DNA of 64,000 bases from Camelus ferus. Taxonomy: Eukaryota. The notes below the pieces were generated by a model. That model was not told the origin of the DNA and made no database searches. It saw nothing but the letters and a program-made list of their open reading frames with translations. The position numbers and the translations under genes are program-made. Within the stretch, counting starts at the first letter, position 1. Every line of letters begins with the position of its first letter. Positions 4,747-60,578 of the stretch are shown one piece after another. The stretch is from NCBI RefSeq assembly GCF_009834535.1, contig NC_045696.1, positions 88,414,001 through 88,478,000 of the forward strand, read 5' to 3'.

Positions 4747-5480
4747 TGTTAACCAAAGGTAAAGGTAAAGGTACTTTTAACCAAAATTTTAGAAATGGAG
4801 ACCTGATCGAAATAAAAAGATGTTTATTTAGGGTTTGTTAGGACTGCAGCCCAGGAGACACAGATCCAAAGAAGCACTTGAAAGATATTCTGCCAGACCA
4901 CAAACTCCAGGAGGCTCGTAAAGGCAAAAACAGCAAAGTTACAGTTAATTACATGAGTTGTTTATCAAGCATTAAATACAAACTACTATATATAAAATAG
5001 GTAAACAAGGTTCTACTGTATACCACAAGGAATTATATTCAATATCTTATAATGACCTATAATGAAAAAGAGTACGAAAAAATATATATATATGTATAAC
5101 TAAATCACTAGGCTGTACACCATAAAATAACACAACATTGTAAATCAACTATGTTTCAATAAAAAATAAAATAAAATAGAAAAAAGAATTATAATTGGAA
5201 CTGGAAAAAAGTACGGGTGTTTAATAAGTAAGGATTTGTTGGGGTCCAAAAAGTCTGCATAGGTCTAAGGAGAGAACTTGAGCCCATCAGATTGCAGTTG
5301 GCAAGTTTTGTTCTGAATACAGCTGGTGGTGTCCTTGGACCTGGCACAGTTTAAAGAATGTACAGGTTCTCAGTGGTGCAGGGACATGTCTGGGACCAGA
5401 TCCTCAATGGCCACCCAACCCTGCTTTTGTGTGCCTGAACTGTGATTCCTCCACTATAATTTCATCTGGTCACCTGTACA
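4747..5480 (-). mobile_element. ERV1-like solo LTR hosting an L1 3' end
   Basis: Begins TG (tgttaacc), has a reverse polyA signal (tttattt ~4823), and interrupts a MIR. Confidence 0.5.
4978..5185 (+). mobile_element. L1 3' end, cetartiodactyl type, with A tail
   Basis: aacaaggttctactgtataccacaaggaattatattcaatatctt...acacaacattgtaaatcaactatgtttcaataaaaaa. Confidence 0.9.
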
Positions 5481-10149: not shown

Positions 10150-11960
10150 AAGGTAAATTCTTTTTGAAATGCAACACAGAAAAGCACACAGATCTTAAGC
10201 TGTACACTTTATGAATTCTCACAACCTGGACACACCTGATTAGAAAAAGACCAGGACCCCAGATGCCCCGTTGTGCCCTGACCCCAAAAGGTTGCCAGCC
10301 TCCTGACTTTTATACAGTCAATGACTTTTGCTTGTTTTTGAACTTTATATAAATGGAAACATACAGTATGGATACCTCTGGGCCTGGCTTATTTCACTCA
10401 ACATTACATTTATGAGATTCATCCATGTCGGTACATGTAAAAATAGTTTGTTCATCCTCACTGAATATAGTATGATTTATTTATCTACACTCTATTATCG
10501 ATGGACTTTGAGGTTGCTTTTAGTTCAGCACTATTATGAATAATGCTGCCATGAACATTCTTATACATGTCTTCGGTGAACATGTGTTCATTTCTGTTGG
10601 GGCTTTATCTAGGAATTAATTGTCAGATCATAGAGCTTCACGTGGTATTGGCTAACTTTTCATTCTGTTAGGTTCAAAGGTGTATTAGACTTGGCTCAGA
10701 CAGGCTCTCAGAGGCCAAAGGTTGAGAGCTGGTTGTTAAACACAATCATTATAAAAAATTAACTTATAAATAAAGGTATTCAAAATTCATCACCTCCTAA
10801 TTATTTTACTATATCTGACTATCATTTACGCTATTAAGATTATTTACGTTAATTGTACCTGTATGGTGGTAATAACTATAATAATGGGGTTTCCTCTGCA
10901 TGTCTTCAGCAATATCCTGTGTGTAGTTTGAAATTAACCACAGTGAAGTATTTACACTATGAAAACTGGAAAATGCTACTAATCAGGGCTTGATTTATTG
11001 TTCTGTTGACTTCTACTGACTTAAGAAAGTGGTAGGGAAAATGCTAATAAACAGATTAAACTCAAAAGTGTTAAGTTTGTAGCTGATATGTTGTGAATAG
11101 CTAAAAAATGTATCAAAGCATGGTGGAATTACAACTTTAGAAATGGACACAAGAGTTTAGCAAAAATCAGCAAAAGCGTTCTGTAAGAATCAGTTGGCTA
11201 TATGGAATTTACAATAAAGAGTGTATGTTATTTTGCATATTTTATTATTACTAGTCAATTTGTGATACACACACAAATACACACTGTTTTTTTCCCCTCT
11301 GGAAAGCCAGTTGTCAAACATTTACCAGCACACTGCTGGTTATAGTGCTATCTGTCATACTGTGATTTGAATTTACCTTCCTTGATGGTTTAGGAAGTTG
11401 AACAGGTTCATAAGTTTATTGATCAATAGAATATCTTTTGTTTTTGTAAAGTCCCTATTAAATTTTTTATTCCTTTTTCTACTGTGTTCTTTTTCTTATT
11501 GATTTTTGAGAACTTTTATATATTCTTGACAAAAGTCCATTATGAACTATATGTATTGCAAATGTCTTCTCCCAACGTGTGACTTGACTTTGTACATTCT
11601 TAGTGGTGGTTTTGGGGGTTTTTTTTGGTGTAGAGAAGTTCTTCGTTTTCATTTAGTACAATTTATCAAACTTCTCCTCAGTAGTTAGTGCAGTTTGCAT
11701 CCAGCTGGAGAAATATTTGCTATCCCTGAGGTGCCTATGTTCTCTTCTAGAAGATTTGCTATTTTACCTTTCACATTTAGATCTGCAACACACCTGGAAT
11801 TTATTTTTTTTTCTGGTGCAAAGTAGAAGCTAAGATTCATTTTTTGTCCAGATGGATATCCAGTTGGCCCAGAACCATTTGCTGAAAAGACCATCTTTCC
11901 ACCATTGTACTTCAGTATTCTTTTTGTCATATCCAAGGAACCACCTATATGTGAATCTTA
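10150..11960 (-). mobile_element. Old L1M 3' UTR/ORF2 end, split by MER63
   Basis: tttatataaatggaaacatacagtatg...tgagattcatccatgt; tggatatccagttggcccagaaccatttgctgaaaagac. Confidence 0.8.
10675..11338 (+). mobile_element. MER63-like hAT-Blackjack DNA transposon
   Basis: gagctggttgttaaacac, aatcagggcttgatttattgtt, terminal gccagttgtcaaacatttaccagcacactgctg. Confidence 0.8.
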
Positions 11961-12144
11961 CAAGACAGTTTTTTTCTTTTTCTACATCTGTGAGTCTGTT
12001 ACAAGACAGATTTAAATCAATGAAGCAATGGATTTTTGCATTTTACAGATACTTTAGTACCTCAATCATCTTACTAATTCATTCAGAAAACATTTTATTT
12101 CAGATGGTTAGGGAACAACTTGTATCACCTCAACAATGTTTATT

Positions 12145-12266
12145 TTGGGGGGTGGGGGGTAATTAGGTTTATTTACTTATTTATTTTTTAATGGAGGTAC
12201 TGGAGATTGAACCCAGGACCTCCTGCACACTAAGCATGCACTCTACCACTGAGCAAAACCCTCCAC
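12145..12266 (-). mobile_element. Camelid tRNA-derived SINE (Vic-1-like)
   Basis: tggaggtactggagattgaacccaggacctcctgcacactaagcatgcactctaccactgagc; perfect 14-bp TSD caacaatgtttatt (12131-12144 / 12267-12280). Confidence 0.92.
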
Positions 12267-13033
12267 CAACAATGTTTATTGATTTCCACTGTGAACAAGA
12301 CCCTGGGCTAGCCTCCGAGGGTGTAACTCTCACCCCTCATCAACTCTACACACTCAAGTCCTTTATCCTTTTATCTCTTTTTCAAGCACCTTAAAAGTCA
12401 TAAAATAAAATTTCTTTCAACATCTTACTTTTCTAGATATTTATCACTAGAACCATTGATAACTTTACAAACTATTTTCTTTCACAATATTAAGGCAATT
12501 TCTTTCATAAAATTAAGGCAAATTCTGATAACATATTCAGATTATCTATTGAACAAGTCAATATTTACTTGTGTAAACTTGTGAGAAAAAAACAAACAAA
12601 CAGATTTCCTTGTCAATAAAGAGTGACAAACTCTTTTTTTCAAAACAGAAAATAACCAGGACAATTTGTTCATTCCTATTTACTGGATGATGATGCACCT
12701 TAGAAGTAATTAAAAAATGTTTTAAATCCATTCAGGAAGAACATATAGATGGGAGTATATTTCTTATATAAGGTAATTAATTTCTTAATTCTGTTATTGA
12801 TTCTATTATTCATAGCTGCACATCCCAAGTGCCTTATAATTGTAGTTTTCTGTTCTTCAGTTTGTGTGTAAAAAGGACCTAGCTTCCACTAGAGGGCATC
12901 TTTACCCCATTTGATCTTTTTTAAAAATAAAAAACAGCAAGTAATATTTTGCTTGATGTTGTCATATTACTTTTTAAATACTCCTGACCCTAAGGAGAAA
13001 GTTGTGAATGATCCTGATATTAAAAGAACTCTT

Positions 13034-13376
13034 CGCGTTGAGCCAAGATGGCAGAGTAGAGACACTCTCAGCTCACCCTCTCCCACAAATACACGAAGAA
13101 TTACATCTATAAACCCATTGAATTGCACAGAACACCTACTGAACTCTGGCAGAGTGTCTCTCATTTCAAAATACAGGATTCTCACAAAATCTGATATACA
13201 ACAAGTTCATACTGTATAGCACAAGGAACTATATTCAGTATCTTCTAATAACTAATGGTTAAAACGAATATGAAAATGAATATATGTATGTTACTATACG
13301 ATTGAAATATTGTGCTATACACCAGAAATTGACACAACATTGTGAACTGACTATACTTCAATAAATATATATATAT
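13034..13376 (+). mobile_element. Bipartite L1 derivative: ~160 bp of L1 5' UTR start fused to ~180 bp of L1 3' terminus
   Basis: caagatggcagagtag...acagaacacctactgaactctggcaga (L1 5' end) joined at 13193/13194 to atatacaacaagttcatactgtatagcac...tatacttcaataaa; 11-bp TSD aaagaactctt (13023-13033 / 13377-13387). Confidence 0.85.
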
Positions 13377-13589
13377 AAAGAACTCTTAGAAACACACACT
13401 ATCTTTTTCATTAAAAGTTCTAGCATTAATAACTATTATTATATATATATATCTTTGGAACTAATTGTCATTCTTCCTTATCCCTCTCTTCCACACATAC
13501 AAAAAGCCCTTTTCAATGTGGGCAGTATGACTATAACCAACACTAAAATATTTATTATAGAATTTATTATATACTCTATAAAATAGACT

Positions 13590-13990
13590 TCCTAAGTATT
13601 TTATCAATAGGAAAAAATCACAAAAGAAAAGATGGATACATTTGACTCAGAACAAAAATTAAATGGTTGAATGTAAGGCAAAAGTATGAACAGAATTGAA
13701 ATGCAAACAACAAACTAGGAAAATAATTGTCACAAATATGAGAATGGGTTAACAGCATTTAATATATATAAACATCTCATGCAGATACATAAAACACTGA
13801 ACTCTTGATAAAAACAGATACAATATAAGTGGATAATTTAATGAACACAGTTTAAAATTAATAAATTTTATTAATAATCTAGGAAACACAAAAAATATGA
13901 TACACTTTCTAACCTATAAAGTTAGGGAAAAGACAATAAATGTTAATGAGGGTAGATGAATTGTTAATTTCATGCACTGCAGGTGTAAGA
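13590..13990 (+). mobile_element. Highly diverged L1ME ORF2 3' fragment
   Basis: A-rich aaaagaaaagatggatacatttgact...gcaaacaacaaactaggaaaata. Confidence 0.55.
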
Positions 13991-14149
13991 AAGTGCTGAC
14001 TTTAAATGTAAAAAAGAGTGTTTTCGAATTGGAAAGCCTTTATTTTTTTCAGCCAAACACTAAAGATTGGTTTAGTCAATAATCATCAATAAATGCCAGA
14101 TCTAGAAGGAAATTTTTGATGAAAAGTGGGATATTTTCAGTCTTCCAAC

Positions 14150-14668
14150 TATAGGGGAGGAAAAATAATTTTCCCTTTACCCTTTTAGGTTTTGTGATAA
14201 GATCCCCCCCCCCCAATAATAAAAGACAGATTAATAAGAGAAAAGCAAACAAACTTTTTTTTAACTCATCCATCTCATGTATACATGAGCCATACCCAGG
14301 AAAACTGAGTAAAACTTCCTGAAATGGCCCAAAGCACCATCATCTTCAGCTAAAGACAGAAGAATAAGTGGAGTGGGGGCAGTTATGAGGGGTTATCAGG
14401 AAAAACAGTAAATAGAGTAAAGTTGTTATGCAGATTTAAGCCAGCACCTTCTCCACTGATAAGAATTCCCTGTGATTTAGGATCATTCTTCTCTTCCTGG
14501 TACAGAGAGGGAGATACCCTAATCAATGGAGATTTCATTTAAAAAAGGGTAAATTCAATTGTTTGTAGATTTTCTCCTGCATCTGCTGTTTCTTAAAAAA
14601 CAACCAGCTGATAATAATCCTTATACCAAAGAGGTATATTTTGGGATGGCATATTCTGCTACTTTTCA
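14150..14668 (-). mobile_element. MER34/MER39-like ERV1 LTR (3' LTR with adjacent polypurine tract)
   Basis: Reverse complement starts tgaaaagtagcagaatatgccatcccaaaatatacctctttggtataaggattatt and is preceded by purine-rich gaaagatgggag. Confidence 0.75.
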
Positions 14669-16628: not shown

Positions 16629-17131
16629 TATCAACTGAAATAAATGCAGTCGACAATGCCTAAAAGTTGAGAGTTATGTTTTATTTGGTGGACATTTCTG
16701 AGGACTCGAACCCCTTCAAGCCTGGAATGACAGTCTCTCAGATGGCTCTGAGGGACTGCTCCAAAGCGGTAGGGGAGGAGCTAGGATATGTAGGAGCTTT
16801 ACAACAAAGACCAGGTAGTTGGAACATTTAAAGATTACTTGTTAATTAAAGAAAACCAGGCATCTCAAGTTAAAGAATTTAGTGCTTTTCTAAGTATGGG
16901 AGGAAGCAAACATTTGGGCTCACTGAATTCTTTCCTTTGACAAGCACCTAGCTATCTAGGGCCAGTATCCTGTCCTTTCTTATTCTGAGTTTCCTCAGGG
17001 TGCACCACTGTGAGTGGCTGCAGAGGCTGGGCTGCAGGCTTGTCTTCACTAGGGGGGTGGCAGCGGCTGATGATTTGATGGCTTCAGCATTTCTTGTTTA
17101 CTGATATGGTTTGCAGTATTTTTCATTCACA
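16629..17131 (-). mobile_element. Cetartiodactyl ERV1 (MER41-like) solo LTR
   Basis: 4-bp TSD ctat on both sides; homologous to 17759-18221 and 50877-51393. Confidence 0.85.
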
Positions 17132-17289
17132 CTATAATGGAGAAGGAAAAAATTGCTATAAATAAATTATTGGGTCAATTGACAAAACTGGAATGTGGAT
17201 GGTAGATTAGGAAATATAATTATATCACTGTTAACTGTACTAAAGTTGATAACTGCACTGCGGTTATGTAAGAGGCATATCCTATTCTT

Positions 17290-17637: not shown

Positions 17638-17758
17638 ATTCATTCAGACTGAAGTATTAGGGATAAATACAATGGGAAAAAATGGTTCAGAAAAATGGAC
17701 ATAATCTGTGAGTTTAAACCTATATATGTATCTATATATTATATCTATCTACATGTAG

Positions 17759-18221
17759 TGTGAATGAAAACTGTTGCCTGCCATACCAGCAAACAAAAGA
17801 TGTTGAAGCCATCAAGCCTCTACAGCCACCCACAACAGTGCACCCAGAGGAGACTCAGGGTGGGATAGAAGAGGACACTGGCCCTAGGTAGCTAAGGTGT
17901 ATATCAAAGGAATGATTTCATTGAGCCCAGACTCTTGCATCTTCCCAAACATAGAAAAGCACTAAATTCCTTAACTTGAGATGTCGGGGTTTTTTGGTTT
18001 TTTTGTTTGTTTGTTTTTTTAATGAACAGTAATCTTTTGATGTTCTGACTATCCAGTCTTTGTTGCAAAAACTCCTATATATCCTGGCTCCTCCCTTACC
18101 TCCTCAGAGCAGTCCCTTAGAGAGATCTGAGAGGTTGTCTCCAGGGCTTGAGGTCCTCAGAGTGGCTGCAGAATAAAATGTAATTCTCAACTTTTAGGTT
18201 GTGCATTTTTCCCAGTTGACA
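17759..18221 (+). mobile_element. Cetartiodactyl ERV1 (MER41-like) solo LTR
   Basis: tgtgaatgaaaactgttgcctgccat ... aataaaatgtaattctcaacttttaggttgtgcatttttcccagttgaca. Confidence 0.85.
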
Positions 18222-18845: not shown

Positions 18846-20037
18846 ACAAAGAGCAAATGATAAAGCAAATGGGATGCGACGCGAATGAGAGGTTAATCTA
18901 GGTGGAAGGTATATGGGTTTTCTTTGTACTATTCTTGCAAATGTTCTGTGAGTTTAAAATCATATCCAAATAGAAAGTTAAAAAATAAAAACAAAAACCA
19001 GAGCTGCTCATTAAAATATTATCTATAATGGCCAAAAAAGAAGAAAAAATGATTAAATAAGTTTTTATGAATCCATTTAGTGTTATTCAGTGTATCAAAC
19101 TGATGTTTTTAAAAACATTCCTTAACATGGGAGGATATTACATAAATGTTCCTTTTATAAAATTGGTAGAAATAAAAACCATTTATACAGGATGATCCCA
19201 GTTAGATCAAACATTAAATAGTTAATGTATTTAACCCAATGTCAACTAAAGTAAGAAGATCCTAATAAAATTGATTCCAGCTTCATAACTAGAAAACCAG
19301 AGTTGCTCTGAACAGCTCTAGGAGTTAAGACATGTCACAGGTAGGGGGAAAGGGAAGGCGGTGGAGTGAGTACTGCATTTCTCCATATCTTCTCTGGCTC
19401 TAAACTTTCCCGTTTGATAAATTACTTCTGTGTAAGAACCCCTTGTCTACTCTCTAGAGCACAGTCCGCAATATAGGTCACATCTCCTTTTTCTTGACTT
19501 ACATCTAAAACATAAGTCATTTGCATGTATTGGTGAAATAAAAGTCCTACCAACAAAGAGAGACCCCTCCACATCAATGCAGAAAACTGATTTAGTACAG
19601 CAGATATTGTGCTTTATAAGGCATATATATTGGTCAATAAGATGACCAAAATATATTTCTCATATATATTTGGTCTTCATCTACATCCTGGCTCACAGCT
19701 CCCAAAACTCTTGGAATTTCATAAGTGTGGAGAATGATAAAGGTGTCTTACATATACATACATATATTCCTTTTCATATACTTTTTCATTATAGGTTACT
19801 ACAAGATACAGAATACAGTTCCCTGTGCTATACAGATAAACTTGTTCCATCTGGGTGTTTCTGAGTTATATCTTTTTATAAAAAACCAGTAATCTAGTAA
19901 CTAAAATGTTTCTCTGAGTTCTATGAGTCACTCTAGAAAATTAATTGAACCCAAGAAGGATGTCATGGGAACCTCTAATTTATAGCCAGTTGGTCAGAAG
20001 CACAGGTAACAGCCTGGGCTTTCGGCTGGCATCTGAA

Positions 20038-22187: not shown

Positions 22188-22350
22188 AAAGCTATTCAGT
22201 TATATATACATATATATATATGTATGTATATATATACACACATATATGTATTTTTTTAATTCTTTTCCATTACAACTCACTACAAGAAATTGAACATAGT
22301 TCCCTGTGCTACCCAGTAGGTCCTTGTTGTTTATCTATTTTATATATAGT
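22188..22350 (-). mobile_element. L1 3' UTR fragment without tail
   Basis: atagttccctgtgctacccagtaggtccttgttgtttatctattttatatatag. Confidence 0.85.
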
Positions 22351-22539
22351 CATGTGGAGATACCACTTTTATAGATGAGATTTTTTGGTTTTGTAGGACC
22401 AGGGGAGTTAAAAAATATAGTCAATAGCAAGATGAGTAGTAAGTAGGCATTCAAGGTTCAGTTTTAACCTAAGTTTGGAGTCCTAACGTTCTTAAATTGT
22501 CTTCAAAAGTTGCGCACCAAGAGAGCATGGAGACACAGC

Positions 22540-41650: not shown

Positions 41651-42846
41651 CACATTCTCTGACATAAATCTTAGCAATGTTCTCCTAGGGCAGTCTAACC
41701 AGGCAATAGAAATAAGAGCAAAATTAAACAAATGGGACCTAATTAAACATAAGCTTTGCACAGCAAAGGAAACCATAAGCAAAACAAAACGACAACCTAA
41801 GGAATTTTGCAAATGATGCAACTGACAAAGGTTTAATTTCCAGAATATATAAACAGCTCATACAACTTAATAACAAAAAAAAATCAACCCAATCAAAAAA
41901 TGGGCAGAGGACCTAAACAAGCAACTCTCCAATGAAGACAGACAAATCGCCAATAGGCACATGAAAAAATGTTCAATATCACTAATTATCAGAGAACTGC
42001 AAATCAAAACTACAATGAGGTATCACCTCACACCAGTCAGAATGGCCATCATTCAAAAGTCCACAAATGACAAATGCTGGAGAGGCTGTGGAGAAAAGGG
42101 AACCCTTCTACACTGCTGGTGGGAATGCAGTTTGGTGCAGTCACTGTGGAAAACAGTATGGAGATTCCTCAAAAGACTAGGAATAGGCTTACCATATGAC
42201 CCAGGAATCCCACTCCTGGGCATATGTCCAGAAGGAACCCTACTTCAAAAAGACACTTGCACCCCAATGTTCATAGCAGCACTATTTACAATAGCTGAGA
42301 CGTGGAAACAGCCTAAATGTGCATCAACAGACGACTGGATAAAGAAGATGTGGTATATTTATACAATGGAATACTATTCAGCCATAAACCCGACAGCATA
42401 ATGCCATTTGCAGCAACATGGATGTCCCTGGAGAATGTCATTCTAAGTGAAGTAAGCCAGAAAGAGAAAGAAAAATACCATATGAGATTGCTCATATGTG
42501 GAATCTAAAAAAAAAAAAAAGGACATAAATACAAAACAGGAACAGACTCATAGACATAGAATACAAGCTTGTGGTTGCCAAGGGGGTAAGGGGTGGGAAG
42601 GGACAGACTGCGATTTCAAAATTTGTATATACTGACAGGCATATGTAGAATAGAAAAATAAGATTATACTGTATAGCACAGGGAAAAATATATAAAATAT
42701 ATGTGGTAGCTCACAGCGAAAAAAAGTGAATGAATGAATGAATGTATGTATGTTCATAAATAACTGAAAAATTGTGCTCTACACTGGAATTCAACACAAC
42801 ATTGTAAAATGACTGTAACTCAATAAAAAAAATGTTTAAAAAAATA
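41651..42846 (+). mobile_element. Relatively young 5'-truncated L1 (ORF2 C-terminus, 3' UTR, A tail)
   Basis: ORF 41961-42401 includes [15 protein letters not shown] and the CCHC knuckle [18 protein letters not shown]; frameshifted, so not functional. Confidence 0.97.
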
Positions 42847-42849
42847 GTT

Positions 42850-42932
42850 TGCTCTGTAAATAGTTGTAATTTTGGTGTGTCCATGAGAGAAGGTGAGCTC
42901 AGGGCCTTCCTACTCTGCTATCTTGGCCCCAC
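42850..42932 (-). mobile_element. L1 extreme 5' end fragment
   Basis: ggtgagctcagggccttcctactctgctatcttggcc is the reverse complement of an L1 5' start (ggccaagatagcagagtaggaagg...gagctcacc). Confidence 0.75.
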
Positions 42933-45434
42933 CTGTGGTCGTGTTAAATCTTAAATATCCAAGTTTGACAGAACACAGATCCTTGTCATGGGTTTATTAC
43001 TTGGGTGCGATAAGGTACCAGAGCCCCTACTTCTTGCCAGTGGTCTTTGCTCTGATTTCAAGGGACCCTCCCATAGAGGAATATCTTTCTTTTTTTTTTT
43101 TTACAAGAGTCAGGGAGTAAAAGAGACTAAGTCATTGAAGGAAAACTGCCATTTCTCCTGCTGTGCCACTTCCTAACATACCCAAATATCCAGATTCAGA
43201 ATATCCCGTTTCTAATGTCATGCTTCTCTCTCAACTGAAAAACATGTCAGACAGCAACAGACACAAAGCTTTCCTGTGGATTTATGGTGCCTTGATTAAA
43301 AAAACTTCTTCAACACCAATGGCCTCAAGTAGCTTGTTGTTTGGTCCTCCTGGGGTTTTACACCCTGTGAATGCACCATAGAAAGATCCATGATGGAGGA
43401 CAGATAAACTTACAAGGTAAGTAAAGCCTACTGTAAAAGAGGAGTTGGGGAAGCACAGAGACTCAAGAGTCCTCTAACTCAAACACATCTCAGGCAAATC
43501 AATTATAAGAGAAAAGCTGAGGGTCTGGACATTGATACCCTCACAACTTTCCATGCTTGAGTATCTCTTAGAATATTTTTATGTACTTCTAAATTTACTT
43601 GTACCCCAGTTTGAAAACCGCTGTAATTTAAGATGTGTTAGTAATTATTAAATTTTCCAGCTAACTGATGGGCTGCAGAATATGTAAGGATATTTTGACA
43701 GACCTGGAGGAGTAAGCATGCTCTAGGAAATCCTTGGTTTATGGCTGTATGATCCTATGACATTGCCTCTACATCAATACAGGGACATGAGTTTGCATCA
43801 CCGACTATTGGAAAGGGGTGGCGGCAGTTGTGTGTGGGAGAGTTGTACCACGCAGAGATAGGAAAGCTTCAGAAGTAAGAAATGGGTGGGTGAGCATAGA
43901 GTGGACACTTTTTGGATACAGTTTTTGGAGCTAACAATACTTTTTGTTTCTTTGGAAACTTCTATTGACACACAGCGTTGGGCACCCAGCGGTCATGTTT
44001 GTAATACATGAATTTCTCCTCCCAAGAATAGATAATTGATTTTGGGATTGATACTTAGCCTAAGCTGAACCAATCATATTTCCCAAGGAATCTGAGCTTT
44101 TGGACTAAAAGACACCCAGAACATGAATTTTAGAACAGAGTCATCTTAATGGAAGAATTCTAGAAAGAAGGTCTCCTATTCCTTGCAGCTTCCTGATTTC
44201 TGACATTCCAGAGGCTTAGGTTTTCAGTAGTTCCTTACATTTCATGCAATACTACAGCATCCTCATAGTATCATTTTTAAACTTTAATAGTACTTCACAA
44301 ATAAGTAGATCAATGAAACAGAATGGAATCCAGAGATAGATTCAAATACATACGAGAATTTTATATGAGGCTATTATATGACAACATTAATATGAGAGTA
44401 GTATAAAGGTAGTAATTCAAAAATTAGTGGAGAAAAGCACTATTCAATAGACGGAGCTGAGACAATCTCATTCTTTTTCCCCAAATAAACTTAAGATAGA
44501 TCAAATATGTCAATGAAAAAAATTCCATAAATTACGCCTGGAGGATTTTTCTAGCCTGTTTTCTTCCAAGACTTCATTCAAGGTATGACTTGAGGGGATG
44601 CCTTTCCTGGGGTGTACAGCTTTTGGAGCTGACTCCATGCTCAGTGCAGATTTGGAGCGTGGGATTATTTTGAGGATTGAATTTCATTCGCTGTTGCTTT
44701 GAAGAATTAAAAAAAAAAATTGGCTATGTAGTTACCCCAAAACTTCTGGTCTACCGTGAGAATCACAGCCAAAAACTTTATCCATCTTTTCTGTTGCTCA
44801 GTTTTTATGTCAAAGTGTTTTCCTCAGCTTTTAGAAAGGAGATGTTGTTTTAGATAACTTTTTAAAGTTTAACTTCCTATCTAAACTGTGATAACTTTAT
44901 ATCCAAACCTTATAATTCTAGAGTTCTCTTGTATTGATGTTTTCTCAAAGCATCCAATAACACGTCAGCTTACATTCTGAATTCTCCTGACTGTTCCCTC
45001 CCACCTCCACCCCACTATTAAGCTGGATGTTCTTTTTCTTTGGCCTTTGCTACCTGTGTCCTGCTAAATTTGGATTCTATCCCCAGATGTTTTTCCTCTT
45101 TGAAAAGGTTTTTTTTTTTTTTTTTTTTTTACTGGAAGGGAGTTTTACTTAGAGAATATATATGGCCCAGATCAGTCCAGCCTTTTCAGGTTCTGCTGCA
45201 TCCCCTCACACTCCTTTCACAGAAAAACATGTAATATTGATTTTAGCAAGAAAAAAAGAAAGAAAGATTAAGATACTAAAAATGTACCCCTGAGGTAGGA
45301 AAAAAAAAAACAAACCAGGAAGCAAAGTTATCTGAGGGAAATGCTTTCCTGTCTATCACAACAGCTGTCTGATAAAAATAATTAAGAAAGTAAGAAAAAT
45401 TGCCCATGTTCTCACGCACCATATTGTTTAACAA

Positions 45435-50400: not shown

Positions 50401-53400
50401 AGTAGAGTCTGGGTTCTCCAGAAAGAGGAGCCAAAAATATATATTCTCTATATAAACACATAGATACATATACCTCTATCTCTATCTCTGTCTGTCTCTA
50501 CACATAGTGAGAAAGGGATTTATTATAAGGAATTGACTCACTCAACTACGGAGGCTGAGAAGTCCATGATCTGCAGTTAGCAAAGAGCCTACAAGTGCAA
50601 GTTCAGCCCAAGTACAAAGGCCTTAAAATCAGAAGAACTGACAGTATAAGTTCAAGTCCAAGTTATGAGTTCAAAGGAAGGAGAAAACTAATGTCCCAGC
50701 TTGAAGATAGTCAGGCGGAGAGAATTCTTTTGTCCTCAGCTTTTTATTCTACTCAGGCCTTCAATGGGTCAGATGAAACCCACCCACACTGGGGAGGGAG
50801 ATCTGCCTTACTCAGTCTACTGATTCAGATGTTAATTTCATCCAGAAACGCCCTCACACTCACATTCAGAAATAATTATTGACTGGGAAAAAATGCACAA
50901 CCTAAAAGTTGAGAATTATGTTTTATTTGGTGCACACTCTGAGGACTTCAAGCCCAGATGCTGCCTCTCAGATAGCTCTAAGGGACTGCTCCAAAGAGGT
51001 AAAGGAGGAGCCAGGATATGCAGGAGTTTTTGCAACAAAGACCAGGTAGTAAGAACATCAAAAAATTACCATTCATTAAAGAAAACCAGATATCTCAAGG
51101 TAAGGAATTTAGTGCATTTCTGTTTGGGAAGATACAAGAGTCTGGGCTCACTGAAGTCATTCCTTTGATATGCACCTTAGCTATCTACAGCCAGTGTCCT
51201 GTCCTTTCCCATCCCCAGTATCCTCAGGGTGCACAGCTGGGAGTGGTTGCAGTGGCTGAGAGCTTGATGGCAGGCATCCTGTTCCTATCTGGAGTTCCCT
51301 CAGGGCTCACAGTTGGGAGCAGCTACAATGTGATGGCTTGACGGATGCAACATTCTCTGTTTACCGTATGGCAGGCAATAGTTTTCATTCACAGAATGTT
51401 TAACCAAATATCTGGGCACCCTATATATTCTTGACACATACAATTAACCATCACAAGTCTACACCTTGTCAACTTGGCATTCACATGCATCTTCTTAAAC
51501 CATACATAATCCCCAAATAAAGACAAGAGCAAGATCTTAATTCTACCTTCAGTGATAACAACTGTTCTGTGTACAACCAGAAATACACTAATCCCTTTTC
51601 CAGCAGAGGTCATGTAATGTTTCTCAGTGGTGTTTACTCTCCTCCTTGATATCCTGTAACTTTGTATTATGATTTAAGTCAATACATCTTGTGTCACATG
51701 ATAAGAGAATAAGAGGGAAGAAAACAAAGATAATTTGCTTTAAAACACACAGACACACACACACACACACACACACACGTTCATAACGAAATAAGGAGGA
51801 ATACTCAAGACAATTATAGTCCCCATTTCTGTAACTGGTCAAGTGGTCACAGCTGTTACTTGTAACTACTTTCTTCCACTACCCATTTTATATTCCCTTT
51901 GCCTTCAGTAAGCACCTCCCCTGGCTGTGGTTCTTTACACATGGAAGTGATCCAAACCTTCATTCCTGAAGGATCTGGGCCATTGGTAGTCCTACCTGGA
52001 TTGGGTTTTTGTTGTTTCCCACTGACCTTAATCACAAGCATGGTAATAACTAATAATCCTAAAGGGATCTCCTGTATTGCAGACATACCTTTCCATATCT
52101 CTGTTGTGGGCTAGATGTCCAGCTTCCCCTTGGGAGTCAGGATCGGTCATCCCAGCCAGTACAGTAACTCATTACTTTGCCTGTTGAGTCAGAGGCATGA
52201 AGGGGCCAAAGCAGCCAGGCAGCAATTTTAACTCCCAGTTCAGTGGAATCATTATTATGTCTTCTGACGGAAGCATCTTCCCCTTCGGCCTAAGACCTCT
52301 AAGCCAGAAGAGCATAGTCATGGGAACAAGAAGCAAAAATTTTGCTAGTAAGTCATTAGGGGTAATAGTGAGTAGAGCCACTCCCATTTCCACCCCTTGA
52401 CTCATGAATCCCAGCTACGGGAGAAACAGCACCACAAACTGGACGCTAATTCACAGCATACACAGCCTTCTGGAGAAACTTGGCCCAGCCCTGTAAGGTA
52501 CTGCCATCTAGTTGATGCTGGACTTCAAAAGGGCATCCCACCATTCTATCGAGCCAGTTGCTTCAGGATAGTGGGGAATATGTAAGGCTAGCGAATTCCA
52601 TGAGCCCGGGGACGTTGCCACATTTCTTCTGCTGTGAGGTGAGTTCCTTGATCAGAAACAATGCTGTGTAGAATACCACGATGGTAAATAAGGTATTCTG
52701 TGAGTACGATGGTAGTTCTGACAAAAGCAATGTGTGCAGAGAAGGCAAATATAAATCCAGAGAAAGGATCTATTCCAGTAAGAACAAGATGCTGTGTCTT
52801 CCATGATGGAAGCTGTCCAATGTAATCAATCGGCTATCAGGTCACCCTGGGGAATAGTGCCACATCTAAGACTCAGTGCTGGTCTCTGCTGCTGGCAGAC
52901 TGGGCACCCTGCGGTGGTCACAGTCAGGTCAGCCTTGTTGTGCTGAAGTCCATGTTGCTGAGCCCGTGCATAACCTCCATCCCTGCCACCCTAGTCACTT
53001 TGCTTACGAGCCTACTGAGTGATGACAGGGGTGGCTGGGAAAAGGGCTGACTGGCTTCCATATCCACTTAATTATTAAAATCCTCCTCTGCTGAGGTCAC
53101 CCTTTGGTGAGCATTCACATGGGACTCAAATGTCTCCCTGTTTTCTGCCTATTTAGAGAGATCTATCTACATACATGCCTCTTCCCCAAATTCCCTTGTC
53201 ACCAATTTTCCAATCATGTTCCTTCCAAGTTCCTGACCATCCAGCAAAACCACTGGCCACAGCCCATGAACCAGTATACATATAATCATATGTCTGGCCA
53301 TTTTTCCTTCCAAGCAAAGTGAACAACTTAGTGCAACATTCAAAGATCTGTCCACAGGGTGGGTTTCCCTCCACTTCAGGGCCGTCCCAGAAAGGGGCTG

Positions 53401-55536
53401 TGGTGCTGCGGCTGCCTGCTTTCACGTGGTGCCTGCATATTGTATGGAACCATCTGTAAATCTGACCCAAGCCCACTCTTCCTCTGTCAACTGATCAACT
53501 GCAGGGAACTCCCTGTGAGGCCCCAGGTGCAGACCAGGAGAGAGAAGGAAGTGTAGTGTCAGTTAAGAGCCAGTGTCCAGCAGTTCCTGAAAGCCCTAAT
53601 TATTTCCTTTTCCCCAGTGCACAGTTTCCCTGGTAAAGGCCATAGGTTGCTTTGGGGGAGGCTGAGAGAAAGATTAGCAGTATCAATTTTTGACAGTGTA
53701 CCAGGGCACCTGGCCTTCCCTTCATTTAAGGGGTTCTGGGTCTACAAGCTGGCTCAGGTCTGAGAACTGATTGAGGGGCTGGGACTCTCATTCTTAGGAT
53801 TCAGGTTAGAATTTTTCACTTGCCTGAGAGCTTTCCTGTTTATACAGATCAAGTAAGCATTCAGTTGGCTTCCTATCCATTTCATTTCCAGGAGTACCAT
53901 GATCAACCAGCCAACGCCACAGGGCTGTGGGAATCAGACTATTCTGATTGCTGCCTTGACTCTGGGGCCCATTACAGCAACCACGCCCGCCTAGCCTTTG
54001 GGGGTTGAACACAGCCATTTGGCCCTTGCCATCCGCAGGTCCCACTGCACTTAGGTTTCCCCATTCAGTGACTAAAGTCCCCACTGTAAGGCCTGGTCTG
54101 TAGAGAGGAACAGTCAGAGGACTTCAAGGACGCCAGGGCTCCTCTCACAAATTTATTTCTCACAGTCGTGGTGAACAGTGTATCTTCTGGACCCTCACAA
54201 TGTGGGTAAGTAGAGTTTCAGTGACAAATCCACTCTAGTACTCCAAATCCCCAAGCCTCTGAACCCCTTCCTCTACATTAAGCCAAGTCTTGCCTACCAT
54301 TTCTAATTTCTGATTTGCTCATTGTGGGCCACTTTCTGATCCATGCTTCAACAAACCTAAAAAACTCTAGAGCCCTTCCTAACTCCTCAAGCTTCAAGAT
54401 TAAATGGAAAGCCCATATCAACACATTTGGCCTGATCCAACTTTACGCTCCTTCCCCACACATCCCACACCTCAATATCCAACCCCACTCACAGTCTCCA
54501 GATTTCTTTCCATGTAAATCGTAAAACTCAAGTAGTGCTTTTGAAGTGCTGTACACCTCCTCGTGGGTCACACTTCGCATCTCCCTTTTAGGGCTGCTGG
54601 GTTTGGGGTCTAGTTCTAGGTATAGAAGCAGAGAGGAGTAGTAGAGGTGGGTCCTGAGGAGACTCAGCCTTGTCCTGTTTGGCAACTGCCTCAGGGAGAT
54701 CATTACAGTTTCCTCAGAGGAGTCAGTGTTAATCCCCTCAGACGGGTGGAGAGGCTGCTCCCATTGGGTGGGGAGGCCTTTTCCACTGGCAAAGAAGACT
54801 CATTGGCATTTAAGGGCTCAACGTCTCCACCATCACCAGGGTCTTCTCACATGTCCCCATTACAGCTTATAGGATCTCAGTCTTTTCCCAAGCAACATCC
54901 TCACTATAACAAAAGACACCCTACTGAGTCTGGGAGTTTATCACGTGCTGCCATTTAGCCAATCACAAAATAAGATTCTGCATTTGGTTTTAAGCAATCT
55001 CAGCCCTACAGCTACAGGAGGTAAGGGTCCTTCAGGACACACACAAAAGCTTTCAGGTGACTAACACGGTGCTTGCATTGAGAATTTGAATCTCTGAGCT
55101 CAAACTTTTCCTTCACCAGTCTAGAAACATTAGAACCAACTAGCCAACCTCATTATATTTTTTAGCTTTCCAACAATGTTTGACAGTATCATATACACAG
55201 TCACTCAGCTCTTTGTTTCTTACAAGAGGTTGATTCAGAGAATCCAATGGAGATGTTTTCCATATCTCTATTTCCAGATGATGCCATGGACTAACAGTGC
55301 TCTCTTTACTACTGGGAATAGAGACATTAGTGTCTTTAATCTAATCAGATTAGAGAGTCCAATCTGGTTTCAATTCCACAAACCCCAGAACCAATTAAGA
55401 AAACTCATATTTAACATTCTGTTCCACTAGAGCCACTCCTGGTATCAAACTCTGCATCAGTCTGGGTTCTCCAGTGAAATAAAACCAACAGGTCCACCAT
55501 GGCCCAGCCACGTTGACACATAAAATTAACCATCAC
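50401..55536 (-). mobile_element. Degenerate ERVL provirus with MLT2 LTRs (gag, protease, RNase H, integrase and dUTPase remnants; RT missing)
   Basis: 3' LTR ~50401-51454 and short 5' LTR 55453-55536 share the ends gtctgggttctccag and ttaaccatcaca; tRNA-Leu-type PBS (tgataccaggagtgg, minus strand ~55433-55447); peptides LLDTGS*LTL, DQLTEEEWAWVRFTDGS, HSIVSDQGTHLTAEE, IPLNWELKLLPGCFG. Confidence 0.92.
50877..51393 (-). mobile_element. Cetartiodactyl ERV1 (MER41-like) solo LTR nested in the MLT2 LTR
   Basis: Same family as 16629-17131 (cctaaaagttgaga...ttatgttttatttggtg...ttttcattcaca). Confidence 0.88.
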
Positions 55537-55975
55537 ATCTACTGATGCATAACAAATTATTCCAAAACTCAGCAGCTTAAAACAGTCACTTATCGTCTTG
55601 CTGCTGTGGGTCAGGAATCAGGTGCAGCTTAGAATCTCTTAGGAGGCTGCAATCAAAGTGTTGGCCGCAACTACAACTCTCTCAGGGCCTGGGTCGGACG
55701 GCATCTGCTTCCAGCTCACTCTTGTGCTCGTTTTCAGGTCTCAGATATCAACTGACTGTTGACCAGAGATCAATATTTCTTTTGCCACATGGCTTCTCCA
55801 AAGGGCTCCTCACAATGTGGCAGTTTGCATCCCCCAAGCCAGGGCTCAGTGAATGAGAAAGAACAAGACAGAATCCAGAGTCTTTCTGTAACCTAATCTT
55901 GGAAATGACATGCCATCACTTTTGCCCTATTCCACTGGTTAAGAAGAAAATCAGTAAGCCTAGCCCACTCATTTA
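55537..55975 (-). mobile_element. MLT1F-like MaLR LTR (probable host of the ERVL; its first bases may lie at 50391-50400)
   Basis: gcataacaaattattccaaaactcagcagcttaaaaca...gtgggtcaggaatc...acctaatcttggaaatgacatgccatcacttttgcc. Confidence 0.8.
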
Positions 55976-56684
55976 CATACAAACCCAGCTCCCTAACAGC
56001 TGAGGGGAAAGGGACCTGGAAAGCTACGCAGACAGTAGTGGTTTCTCTTGGAAGGGCAGAGGAATTTTGGTGGGGGACAGGGCAGGTGGGGGTGGGGAGG
56101 CAGGGGAAGGAATGGTGTTAGGAAGGACTTTCACACTTTCATTTTATTTGCACTGTTTGAACTGTTTTACCAAAATGTATTGAAGTGTTACATGTGTAAA
56201 TGAAAATAAATACAAATTCAGAAAAAATCCTCACTGGAGTCAATAAAACATTCCCATTTGTTGTTCACAAAAAAAAGTTTTTTTTTAAGGAACGAAAATG
56301 TCATGATCACTGAAATGTTCTTCTCATACTGAAAGAAGAGCCTTAAGAATATCTACAGCTTACATTATGGGCAACATGCAAAGATACAATAAAGCAGAGG
56401 CCTTTTAGCTTGGAATTGATTCTTCCAGGTTGAATGGAGCTCTGGTAGTGGCTTTTAATTGTTCTTTGATTAAATACAGCTGAATGTATCTACTCAGGTT
56501 GCCAGTGGGAACCAGGAGGGCAAAGGGCAAGAGTTATTAAATGGAGAGACATCTTCATAAAGTAATTTTTGAGAATGTTTTTCTTTTTTGCATACTCCTG
56601 AGATAGAATATAATTTTCCCTGATAGGCCTGGAGGCTCTTGGGAAATAAAACGTGCTAACAATGATAAAGATATATAACACCTT

Positions 56685-60074: not shown

Positions 60075-60578
<504 letters not shown>

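Follow-up and report, generated by a model that had tools for sequence, protein, structure and literature searches.

A candidate family of short, ORF-less L1 copies in Camelus ferus, probably derived from L1 RNA spliced from the 5′ UTR to the 3′ UTR

Among the closest described systems are the SpIREs of L1 (long interspersed element-1) in humans, namely SpIRE97/622, 97/790 and 97/976 (Larson et al., 2018, PMC5860796). According to the excerpts of the literature on which all comparisons with published work in this text are based, SpIREs go back to L1 RNA spliced from a donor in the 5′ untranslated region (UTR) and then retrotransposed, occur as many copies with one junction, carry L1 insertion hallmarks and are seen as dead ends. 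Their splicing ends in the 5′ UTR or in open reading frame (ORF) 1, and ORF2 is kept (PMC5860796; commentary PMC5860798). A second group comprises bipartite LINEs that are made of nothing but a LINE’s 5′ and 3′ ends, contain no ORF and are moved by the parent LINE, i.e., Bov-A, RTESINE1/2, WALLSI3, RIME, NARTc and the Vingi derivatives (Kojima, 2018, PMC5786205). In the excerpted text of that survey, RTE, Ingi, Vingi and R2 are the only clades reported as sources, and the elements are ascribed to internal deletion. Here, we describe a 343 bp insert, termed mini-L1, in a stretch of 64,000 nucleotides of Camelus ferus (assembly GCF_009834535.1, contig NC_045696.1, positions 88,414,001 to 88,478,000 of the forward strand). 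This whole stretch is called the window, and all coordinates refer to it.

Like a SpIRE, mini-L1 would descend from L1 RNA spliced at a 5′ UTR donor and retrotransposed, and its junction is shared by further copies. In contrast to the published SpIREs, its acceptor lies in the 3′ UTR, it has no ORF and measures only 343 bp, all proteins for its mobilization must come from elsewhere, and its host is not a primate. Its anatomy is that of an ORF-less bipartite LINE; such elements amplify from masters of their own, whereas mini-L1 derives from L1, has splice-like ends and has only putative masters. HAL1 (half-L1, PMC5786205) is also a non-autonomous L1 derivative, but retains ORF1, while mini-L1 is without any ORF. 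Processed pseudogenes are spliced, polyadenylated RNAs copied in trans by L1 proteins (PMC5860796), as is proposed here for mini-L1, with the difference that its RNA would be L1’s own and includes the start of the L1 internal promoter. Thus, mini-L1 probably works like a SpIRE, while departing from the published class in one feature (ORF2 retained, acceptor in 5′ UTR or ORF1), and is built like an ORF-less bipartite LINE. The excerpted main texts of two camel repeat surveys mention no such family (PMC8605555, PMC6675863), but the repeat library of PMC8605555 may contain one. Nothing on ORF-less L1 was found in the excerpts of PMC6466679 and 10.1101/2025.02.02.635956. Judged from its listings, a search of full-text literature, whose scope did not extend to Repbase, Dfam, most subscription journals or Belancio et al. 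(2006), returned no report of a spliced L1 family without ORFs.

A preliminary description of this region, made from the letters alone, had proposed a 343 bp insert between perfect 11 bp target-site duplications (TSDs) at an L1-endonuclease-type site, made of approximately 160 bp of the L1 5′ UTR start fused at 13193/13194 to the L1 3′ end and lacking both ORFs. All of this was confirmed. The 11 bp direct repeat is exact, and no third occurrence exists on either strand of the whole window. The chance of such a match is about 9e-7 per position pair; when 400 pairs of starts are considered, it rises to about 4e-4. Between the two repeats lie 343 bp (13034–13376), composed of a 160 bp head and a 183 bp tail. 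The left TSD copy starts inside the sequence TT/AAAA, an L1 endonuclease-type site (the consensus is bottom-strand TTTT/A; PMC5860796). The longest ATG frames of the insert encode 26 and 43 amino acids. We conclude that mini-L1 was inserted as one unit, head and tail together. Its parts are as follows.

13020..13025, + strand: L1 endonuclease-type target site TT/AAAA (from the sequence; consensus per PMC5860796)
13023..13033, + strand: left TSD, 11 bp, exact (repeat comparison)
13034..13193, + strand: L1 5′ UTR head, 160 bp, 5′ end apparently complete, putative exon 1 (head alignments)
13044..13051, + strand: CAAGATGG motif, a putative YY1-type site (from the sequence)
13193..13194, + strand: head-tail junction, the putative splice joint; G13193 can be assigned to either side, an ambiguity of 1 nt (contig ends and head stops)
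13194..13365, + strand: L1 3′ UTR end with AATAAA at 13360–13365, putative exon 2 (L1 3′ end alignments and the ORF2 link)
13366..13376, + strand: (TA)n tract replacing the poly(A) tail (from the sequence)
13377..13387, + strand: right TSD, 11 bp, exact (repeat comparison)

Inside mini-L1, no Rfam match was found, the sole match across 11500–14500 being a tRNA at 12192–12263; a small-RNA-derived head with a polymerase III promoter, as is characteristic of short interspersed elements (SINEs), was thus not detected. Plasmid and phage records gave no match to mini-L1 either, and look-ups by sequence turned up nothing similar to this stretch. A 108-codon stop-to-stop frame (12893–13219) spans flank, TSD and junction and was set aside as a chance frame.

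Seven further L1 3′ ends of the window are 72–86% identical to the tail. One of these, at 42657–42827, lies downstream of an ORF matching residues 1064–1236 of human LINE-1 ORF2p (E 1e-81), and through this tie to ORF2p the tail family of mini-L1 is assigned to L1. Mini-L1 itself terminates in AATAAA followed by (TA)n without poly(A), and contigs of four sequencing runs (described below) show A-rich letters after 13362–13365 in other copies. A 26-nt tail motif had no match in viral contigs. Among the seven other tails of the window, three (4975–5175, + strand; 19756–19846 and 22190–22352, − strand) start no more than about 30 nt from where the mini-L1 junction lies, just 3′ of a G-rich tract, possibly a truncation hot spot.

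The head carries CAAGATGG, which we take to be a YY1-type site, beginning 10 nt from its start. A second head in the window (42927–42860, − strand) is 77% identical to it, and no further L1 5′ UTR parts were found within the 64 kb. This second head belongs to an isolated L1 5′ piece of approximately 75 bp (42860–42935, − strand) of another subfamily, which abuts an oppositely oriented, 5′-truncated L1 tail (about 41660–42846, + strand). For comparison, nine heads (L001–L003, L005–L010) were obtained from contigs of two public metagenome assemblies, which contain mammalian repeat DNA carried over from a host. An 18-nt head motif matched these contigs ten times, i.e., in the nine repeat heads and in one unrelated sequence (L004). 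It had no match in viral contigs and two in genome contigs, both bacterial and unrelated. The nine heads align with the mini-L1 head at about 70% identity over long matches and run on for 636–1198 GC-rich bases without an L1 tail. They are presumably L1 5′ UTRs of another even-toed or whale-like host. ORF1 was not recognized in the listed frames of L006 and L008, on which no profile scan was made. In the L009 head, about 43 bp surrounding the conserved 18-mer are duplicated in tandem. The spacing from AGATG to this 18-mer is 81 nt in mini-L1 and 81–82 nt in six of the nine heads, and many of the contigs analyzed below start to align at 13037–13050. The 5′ end of the mini-L1 head is, therefore, apparently complete.

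In order to find the junction at other loci, assembled contigs of three DNA runs (X1, X2 and X8, from organisms A, B and D) and of one RNA run (X18), four of 24 runs, were aligned to 12900–13500 at 80% likeness, so that copies less than 80% alike escape. Individual alignments are known for the 32 contig pieces listed out of 70,514; contigs do not equal loci, and summed depth is no copy number. Thirteen of these 32 pieces span 13193/13194, covering no fewer than 97 letters to its left and 27–75 to its right. Their divergence from the window is 9–18% (for the nine rows tabulated, the mean is 12%). Seven of the 13 satisfy a rule of 31 letters on each side and correspond to four distinct records after merging, in which records recurring between runs were joined by length, ends and gap count. 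When all crossing pieces are merged, about seven distinct records or loci remain among the pieces listed, so the junction, whose copies at other loci the preliminary description had proposed to count, is not unique. Several of the shorter crossing pieces end 27–30 letters past the junction, presumably as assembly contigs do when entering a high-copy repeat. In X1 r5 and X2 r21, probably a single locus, the junction is crossed without a gap (29 letters on the right); for such ungapped pieces only, the exact junction register is known.

Longer crossing records reveal their surroundings. An 8311 bp contig (X1 r6, equated with X2 r20) has 8115 letters upstream that are unlike the flank of the window, and X18 r12 and r14 have 391 and 517 such letters (oriented via the orthologous record r1). 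Consequently, these records represent other loci and not copies of this region. A segmental duplication of the mini-L1 locus was ruled out on the same grounds, as the window flank finds no alignment in the long crossing records.

The four runs further contain variants at the joint itself. A at 13193 was found in 17, 27, 14 and 9 contigs, respectively, and C at 13192 in 23, 40, 26 and 18. From these variants it follows that the joint ended in CpG, which decayed to TG here and to CA elsewhere. A mismatch at 13193 presumably stays within an alignment only when the match continues on both sides. Scaled by depth share, the crossing contigs number about 53, 65, 50 and 39 per run, a rough figure since contigs are not loci. 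Depth at 13193 amounts to 1.2–3.6% of that at 13197 in the tail and to 18–36% of that at 13164 in the head. Hence, mini-L1 copies are rare among L1 tails and common among L1 heads. Gap counts of 0, 3, 4, 5, 10 and 12 occur among the crossing records, and 27 contigs of X1 carry an AGG insertion in the head; both weakly suggest several source variants. With respect to master copies, several copies with mixed gap patterns were found. Some single contigs run from tail to head (13365 to 13040, 13369 to 13065), as in tandem copies or adjacent insertions. Taken together, the aligned contigs indicate that mini-L1 is a member of a small multi-copy family with probably dozens or more dispersed copies.

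The RNA run adds to the recurrence of the junction only. Its pieces are assembled contigs in which transcript and genomic copy are indistinguishable, r12 and r14 extend into flanking DNA, and it does not cover the window flanks at 12900–13025 and 13425–13500. It is, therefore, uninformative on expression, and its contigs showed no sign of ongoing splicing.

Since the preliminary description had suggested that a spliced L1 RNA gave rise to the insert, the sequences at both breakpoints were inspected. On the 3′ side, 172, 201, 160 and 70 contigs of the four runs start at G13193, after L1 3′ UTR letters ending in TATA-AAATA. As these letters end in A, an AG directly precedes 13194. This AG is present in the consensus of all four runs and in all five L1 tails of the window that span the position (the other two start later). 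In the copy around 33988, for which it had been claimed before, it was indeed found at 33986–33987. Both this copy and the X8 consensus have a branch-like CTAAC motif, whose A lies at −19 and which no AG separates from the acceptor. On the 5′ side, three of the heads listed lose their likeness to mini-L1 at 13190–13193 and continue with 166–312 unlike letters; a fourth does so at 13197 and two at 13178. In the aligned place of the nine non-camel heads, GT is found in eight and GC in one, followed by A(G/A). The comparison with the GTAGG named in the preliminary description covers related non-camel L1 only. The multiple alignment sets the 5′ break exactly on the non-camel GT, and the distance from a shared CAC to the break is 8 nt in mini-L1 and in eight of the nine heads, seven of them with GT. 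Overall, the GT lies 0–1 nt from the 5′ break in eight of nine heads of related L1. A GT donor at the 5′ break is, therefore, likely. For a random deletion, GT and AG at the breaks would be expected by chance in about 0.4% of cases over two registers.

Based on these results, we consider it probable that the family arose by repeated retrotransposition of L1 RNA spliced from the 5′ UTR to the 3′ UTR, leaving mostly dead-end copies. In full-length L1 transcripts of one old family, splicing would occasionally have joined a donor located some 160 nt inside the 5′ UTR to an acceptor AG about 170 nt before the end of the poly(A) signal. The intron of several kb would have comprised the rest of the 5′ UTR, ORF1, ORF2 and the start of the 3′ UTR, leaving a capped and polyadenylated noncoding RNA of about 340 nt. 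This remainder may then have been integrated through target-primed reverse transcription in trans, using L1 proteins that a different RNA had encoded, as is the case for processed pseudogenes; more speculatively, the proteins could have been loaded on the same RNA while it was still unspliced. Repeated events of this kind would have produced dozens or more dispersed copies, most of which spread no further. Short templates would be copied whole and keep their heads, escaping the usual 5′ truncation of L1 insertions, which would make mini-L1 copies common among heads and rare among tails. At usual mammalian rates, a divergence of about 12% between copies corresponds to tens of millions of years, and a filled site is, therefore, expected in alpaca.

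The proposal of splicing in the preliminary description is supported in part: the insertion as a unit, the recurrence of the junction, the AG at the 3′ break and the GT 0–1 nt from the break in related L1 speak for it. We infer a GT donor in the L1 of this genome, as well as splicing as the cause, several source L1s, the dead-end status and mobilization in trans. Several observations weigh against this explanation. The donor was read in related non-camel L1 only, and among the nine non-camel heads no spliced form was found. When heads were aligned pairwise with seven scoring schemes, most alignments stopped 1 nt short of the non-camel GT; for L005 they point to an upstream GT and only for L010 do they end exactly on the GT, and treating the CpG-variable base as neutral left these end points unchanged. 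The acceptor has no polypyrimidine tract, as the preliminary description had cautioned (of the 17 nt preceding the break, seven are pyrimidines), and the CTAAC motif is present in only one of four run consensuses and one of five window tails. Single contigs join head to tail elsewhere (13091–13218, 13176–13309, 13178–13267). In gapped crossing records, the junctions may differ by some bases. Finally, TSDs were seen for the window copy only, those of other copies not being visible in the contig pieces.

Splicing may also have created a short parasite of L1 itself, an option raised in the preliminary description, i.e., a 343 bp unit with core promoter and 3′ end that amplified from a master copy as a polymerase II-driven, SINE-like family, present in several mammalian lineages. 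Such self-amplification would account for the same junction at several loci and for the complete head with CAAGATGG and tail with AATAAA, and bipartite families of this kind exist in RTE, Ingi, Vingi and R2 (PMC5786205). The junction depth of 18–36% of head depth is also far above the 1.8–2% of SpIREs among full-length human L1s given in the excerpts of PMC5860796. However, a high head share is presumably expected regardless, as short RNAs escape 5′ truncation, and aligning to mini-L1 as the reference favors crossing contigs. In addition, gap patterns vary among the copies, SpIRE97/622, which keeps the first 97 nt, is transcribed about 30-fold less, the RNA fold of mini-L1 is unremarkable (z −1.35), and the RNA-run records r12 and r14 extend into flanking DNA and thus provide no transcript of mini-L1. 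A tail share of 1–4% together with the retention of heads requires no round of self-amplification, and, given the mixed gap patterns, repeated splicing fits at least as well. We therefore regard self-amplification as rather unlikely.

A template jump would explain the joint without splicing: ORF2p, having copied about 170 nt of the RNA, would have halted at a favored position and continued close to the 5′ end of that RNA. On either side, an AAAAT run precedes the break by a few bases, and three and two contigs are without one letter at 13192, as expected of such a join. The weak acceptor and the scattered single-contig joints are also compatible with a jump, and the three window tails starting within about 30 nt of the junction position hint at a stall site. 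Yet head and tail overlap exactly by a single G at the joint, and a jump within AAAAT would lose the last three head bases, which follow the run and are retained in mini-L1. A single recurring joint, flanked by AG on the 3′ side and by GT at or beside the 5′ side, is indicated by the ungapped crossing elsewhere (X1 r5) and by the dozens of contigs with CpG variants at 13192–13193. A template jump thus appears improbable.

Deletion of the interior of a full-length L1 after insertion, at this site only, is very improbable and, given the recurrence of the junction and its AG/GT context, unlikely as a general cause: an orthologous contig across the internal junction is absent from the pieces listed, but diverged crossing records lie at other loci with flanks of their own, the insertion ends differ by no more than one base in those orthologous contigs of organisms A, B and D that are listed (3′ end: B and D only), and 14 runs of four organisms contain 79–88% of the words of 12700–13700.

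The window contains further repeats. A tRNA-derived SINE at 12131–12280 (− strand) is flanked by a 14 bp direct repeat at 12131 and 12267, and its head was identified as tRNA-Thr by ARAGORN. It resembles the camelid Vic-1 SINE. In the excerpts of one camel repeat survey, the SINEs listed are nearly all MIRs. Three related repeats resembling long terminal repeats (LTRs) lie at 16659–17134, 17756–18213 and 50886–51258, two of them inverted and about 600 bp apart, and another LTR-like repeat at about 4800–5220 hosts a short L1 tail. A GC-richer stretch at 52500–56000 (− strand) contains short frames, which we take to be decayed retroviral sequences similar to gag and RNase H. At 60103–60468, a long (TG)n tract includes an exact 47 bp unit repeated at 60103 and 60321, either by tandem duplication or as an assembly artifact.

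If mini-L1 copies originate as proposed, they would extend the known fossils of L1 splicing from small deletions in the leader to the loss of the whole coding body. Splicing, rather than deletion of DNA, would be a route from L1 to ORF-less bipartite elements, a class not known for L1 in the excerpts of one survey (PMC5786205). Repeat maskers would break these copies into two fragments, and they may, therefore, have been widely overlooked. Each insertion places the start of an L1 promoter and a poly(A) signal in the genome. With the GT conserved in the head of a distantly related L1, one may ask, as has been done for human L1, why a donor that does harm persists. Finally, mini-L1 copies would represent a natural gauge of how frequently ORF-less L1 RNA is mobilized, by which cis preference could be tested in the germ line.
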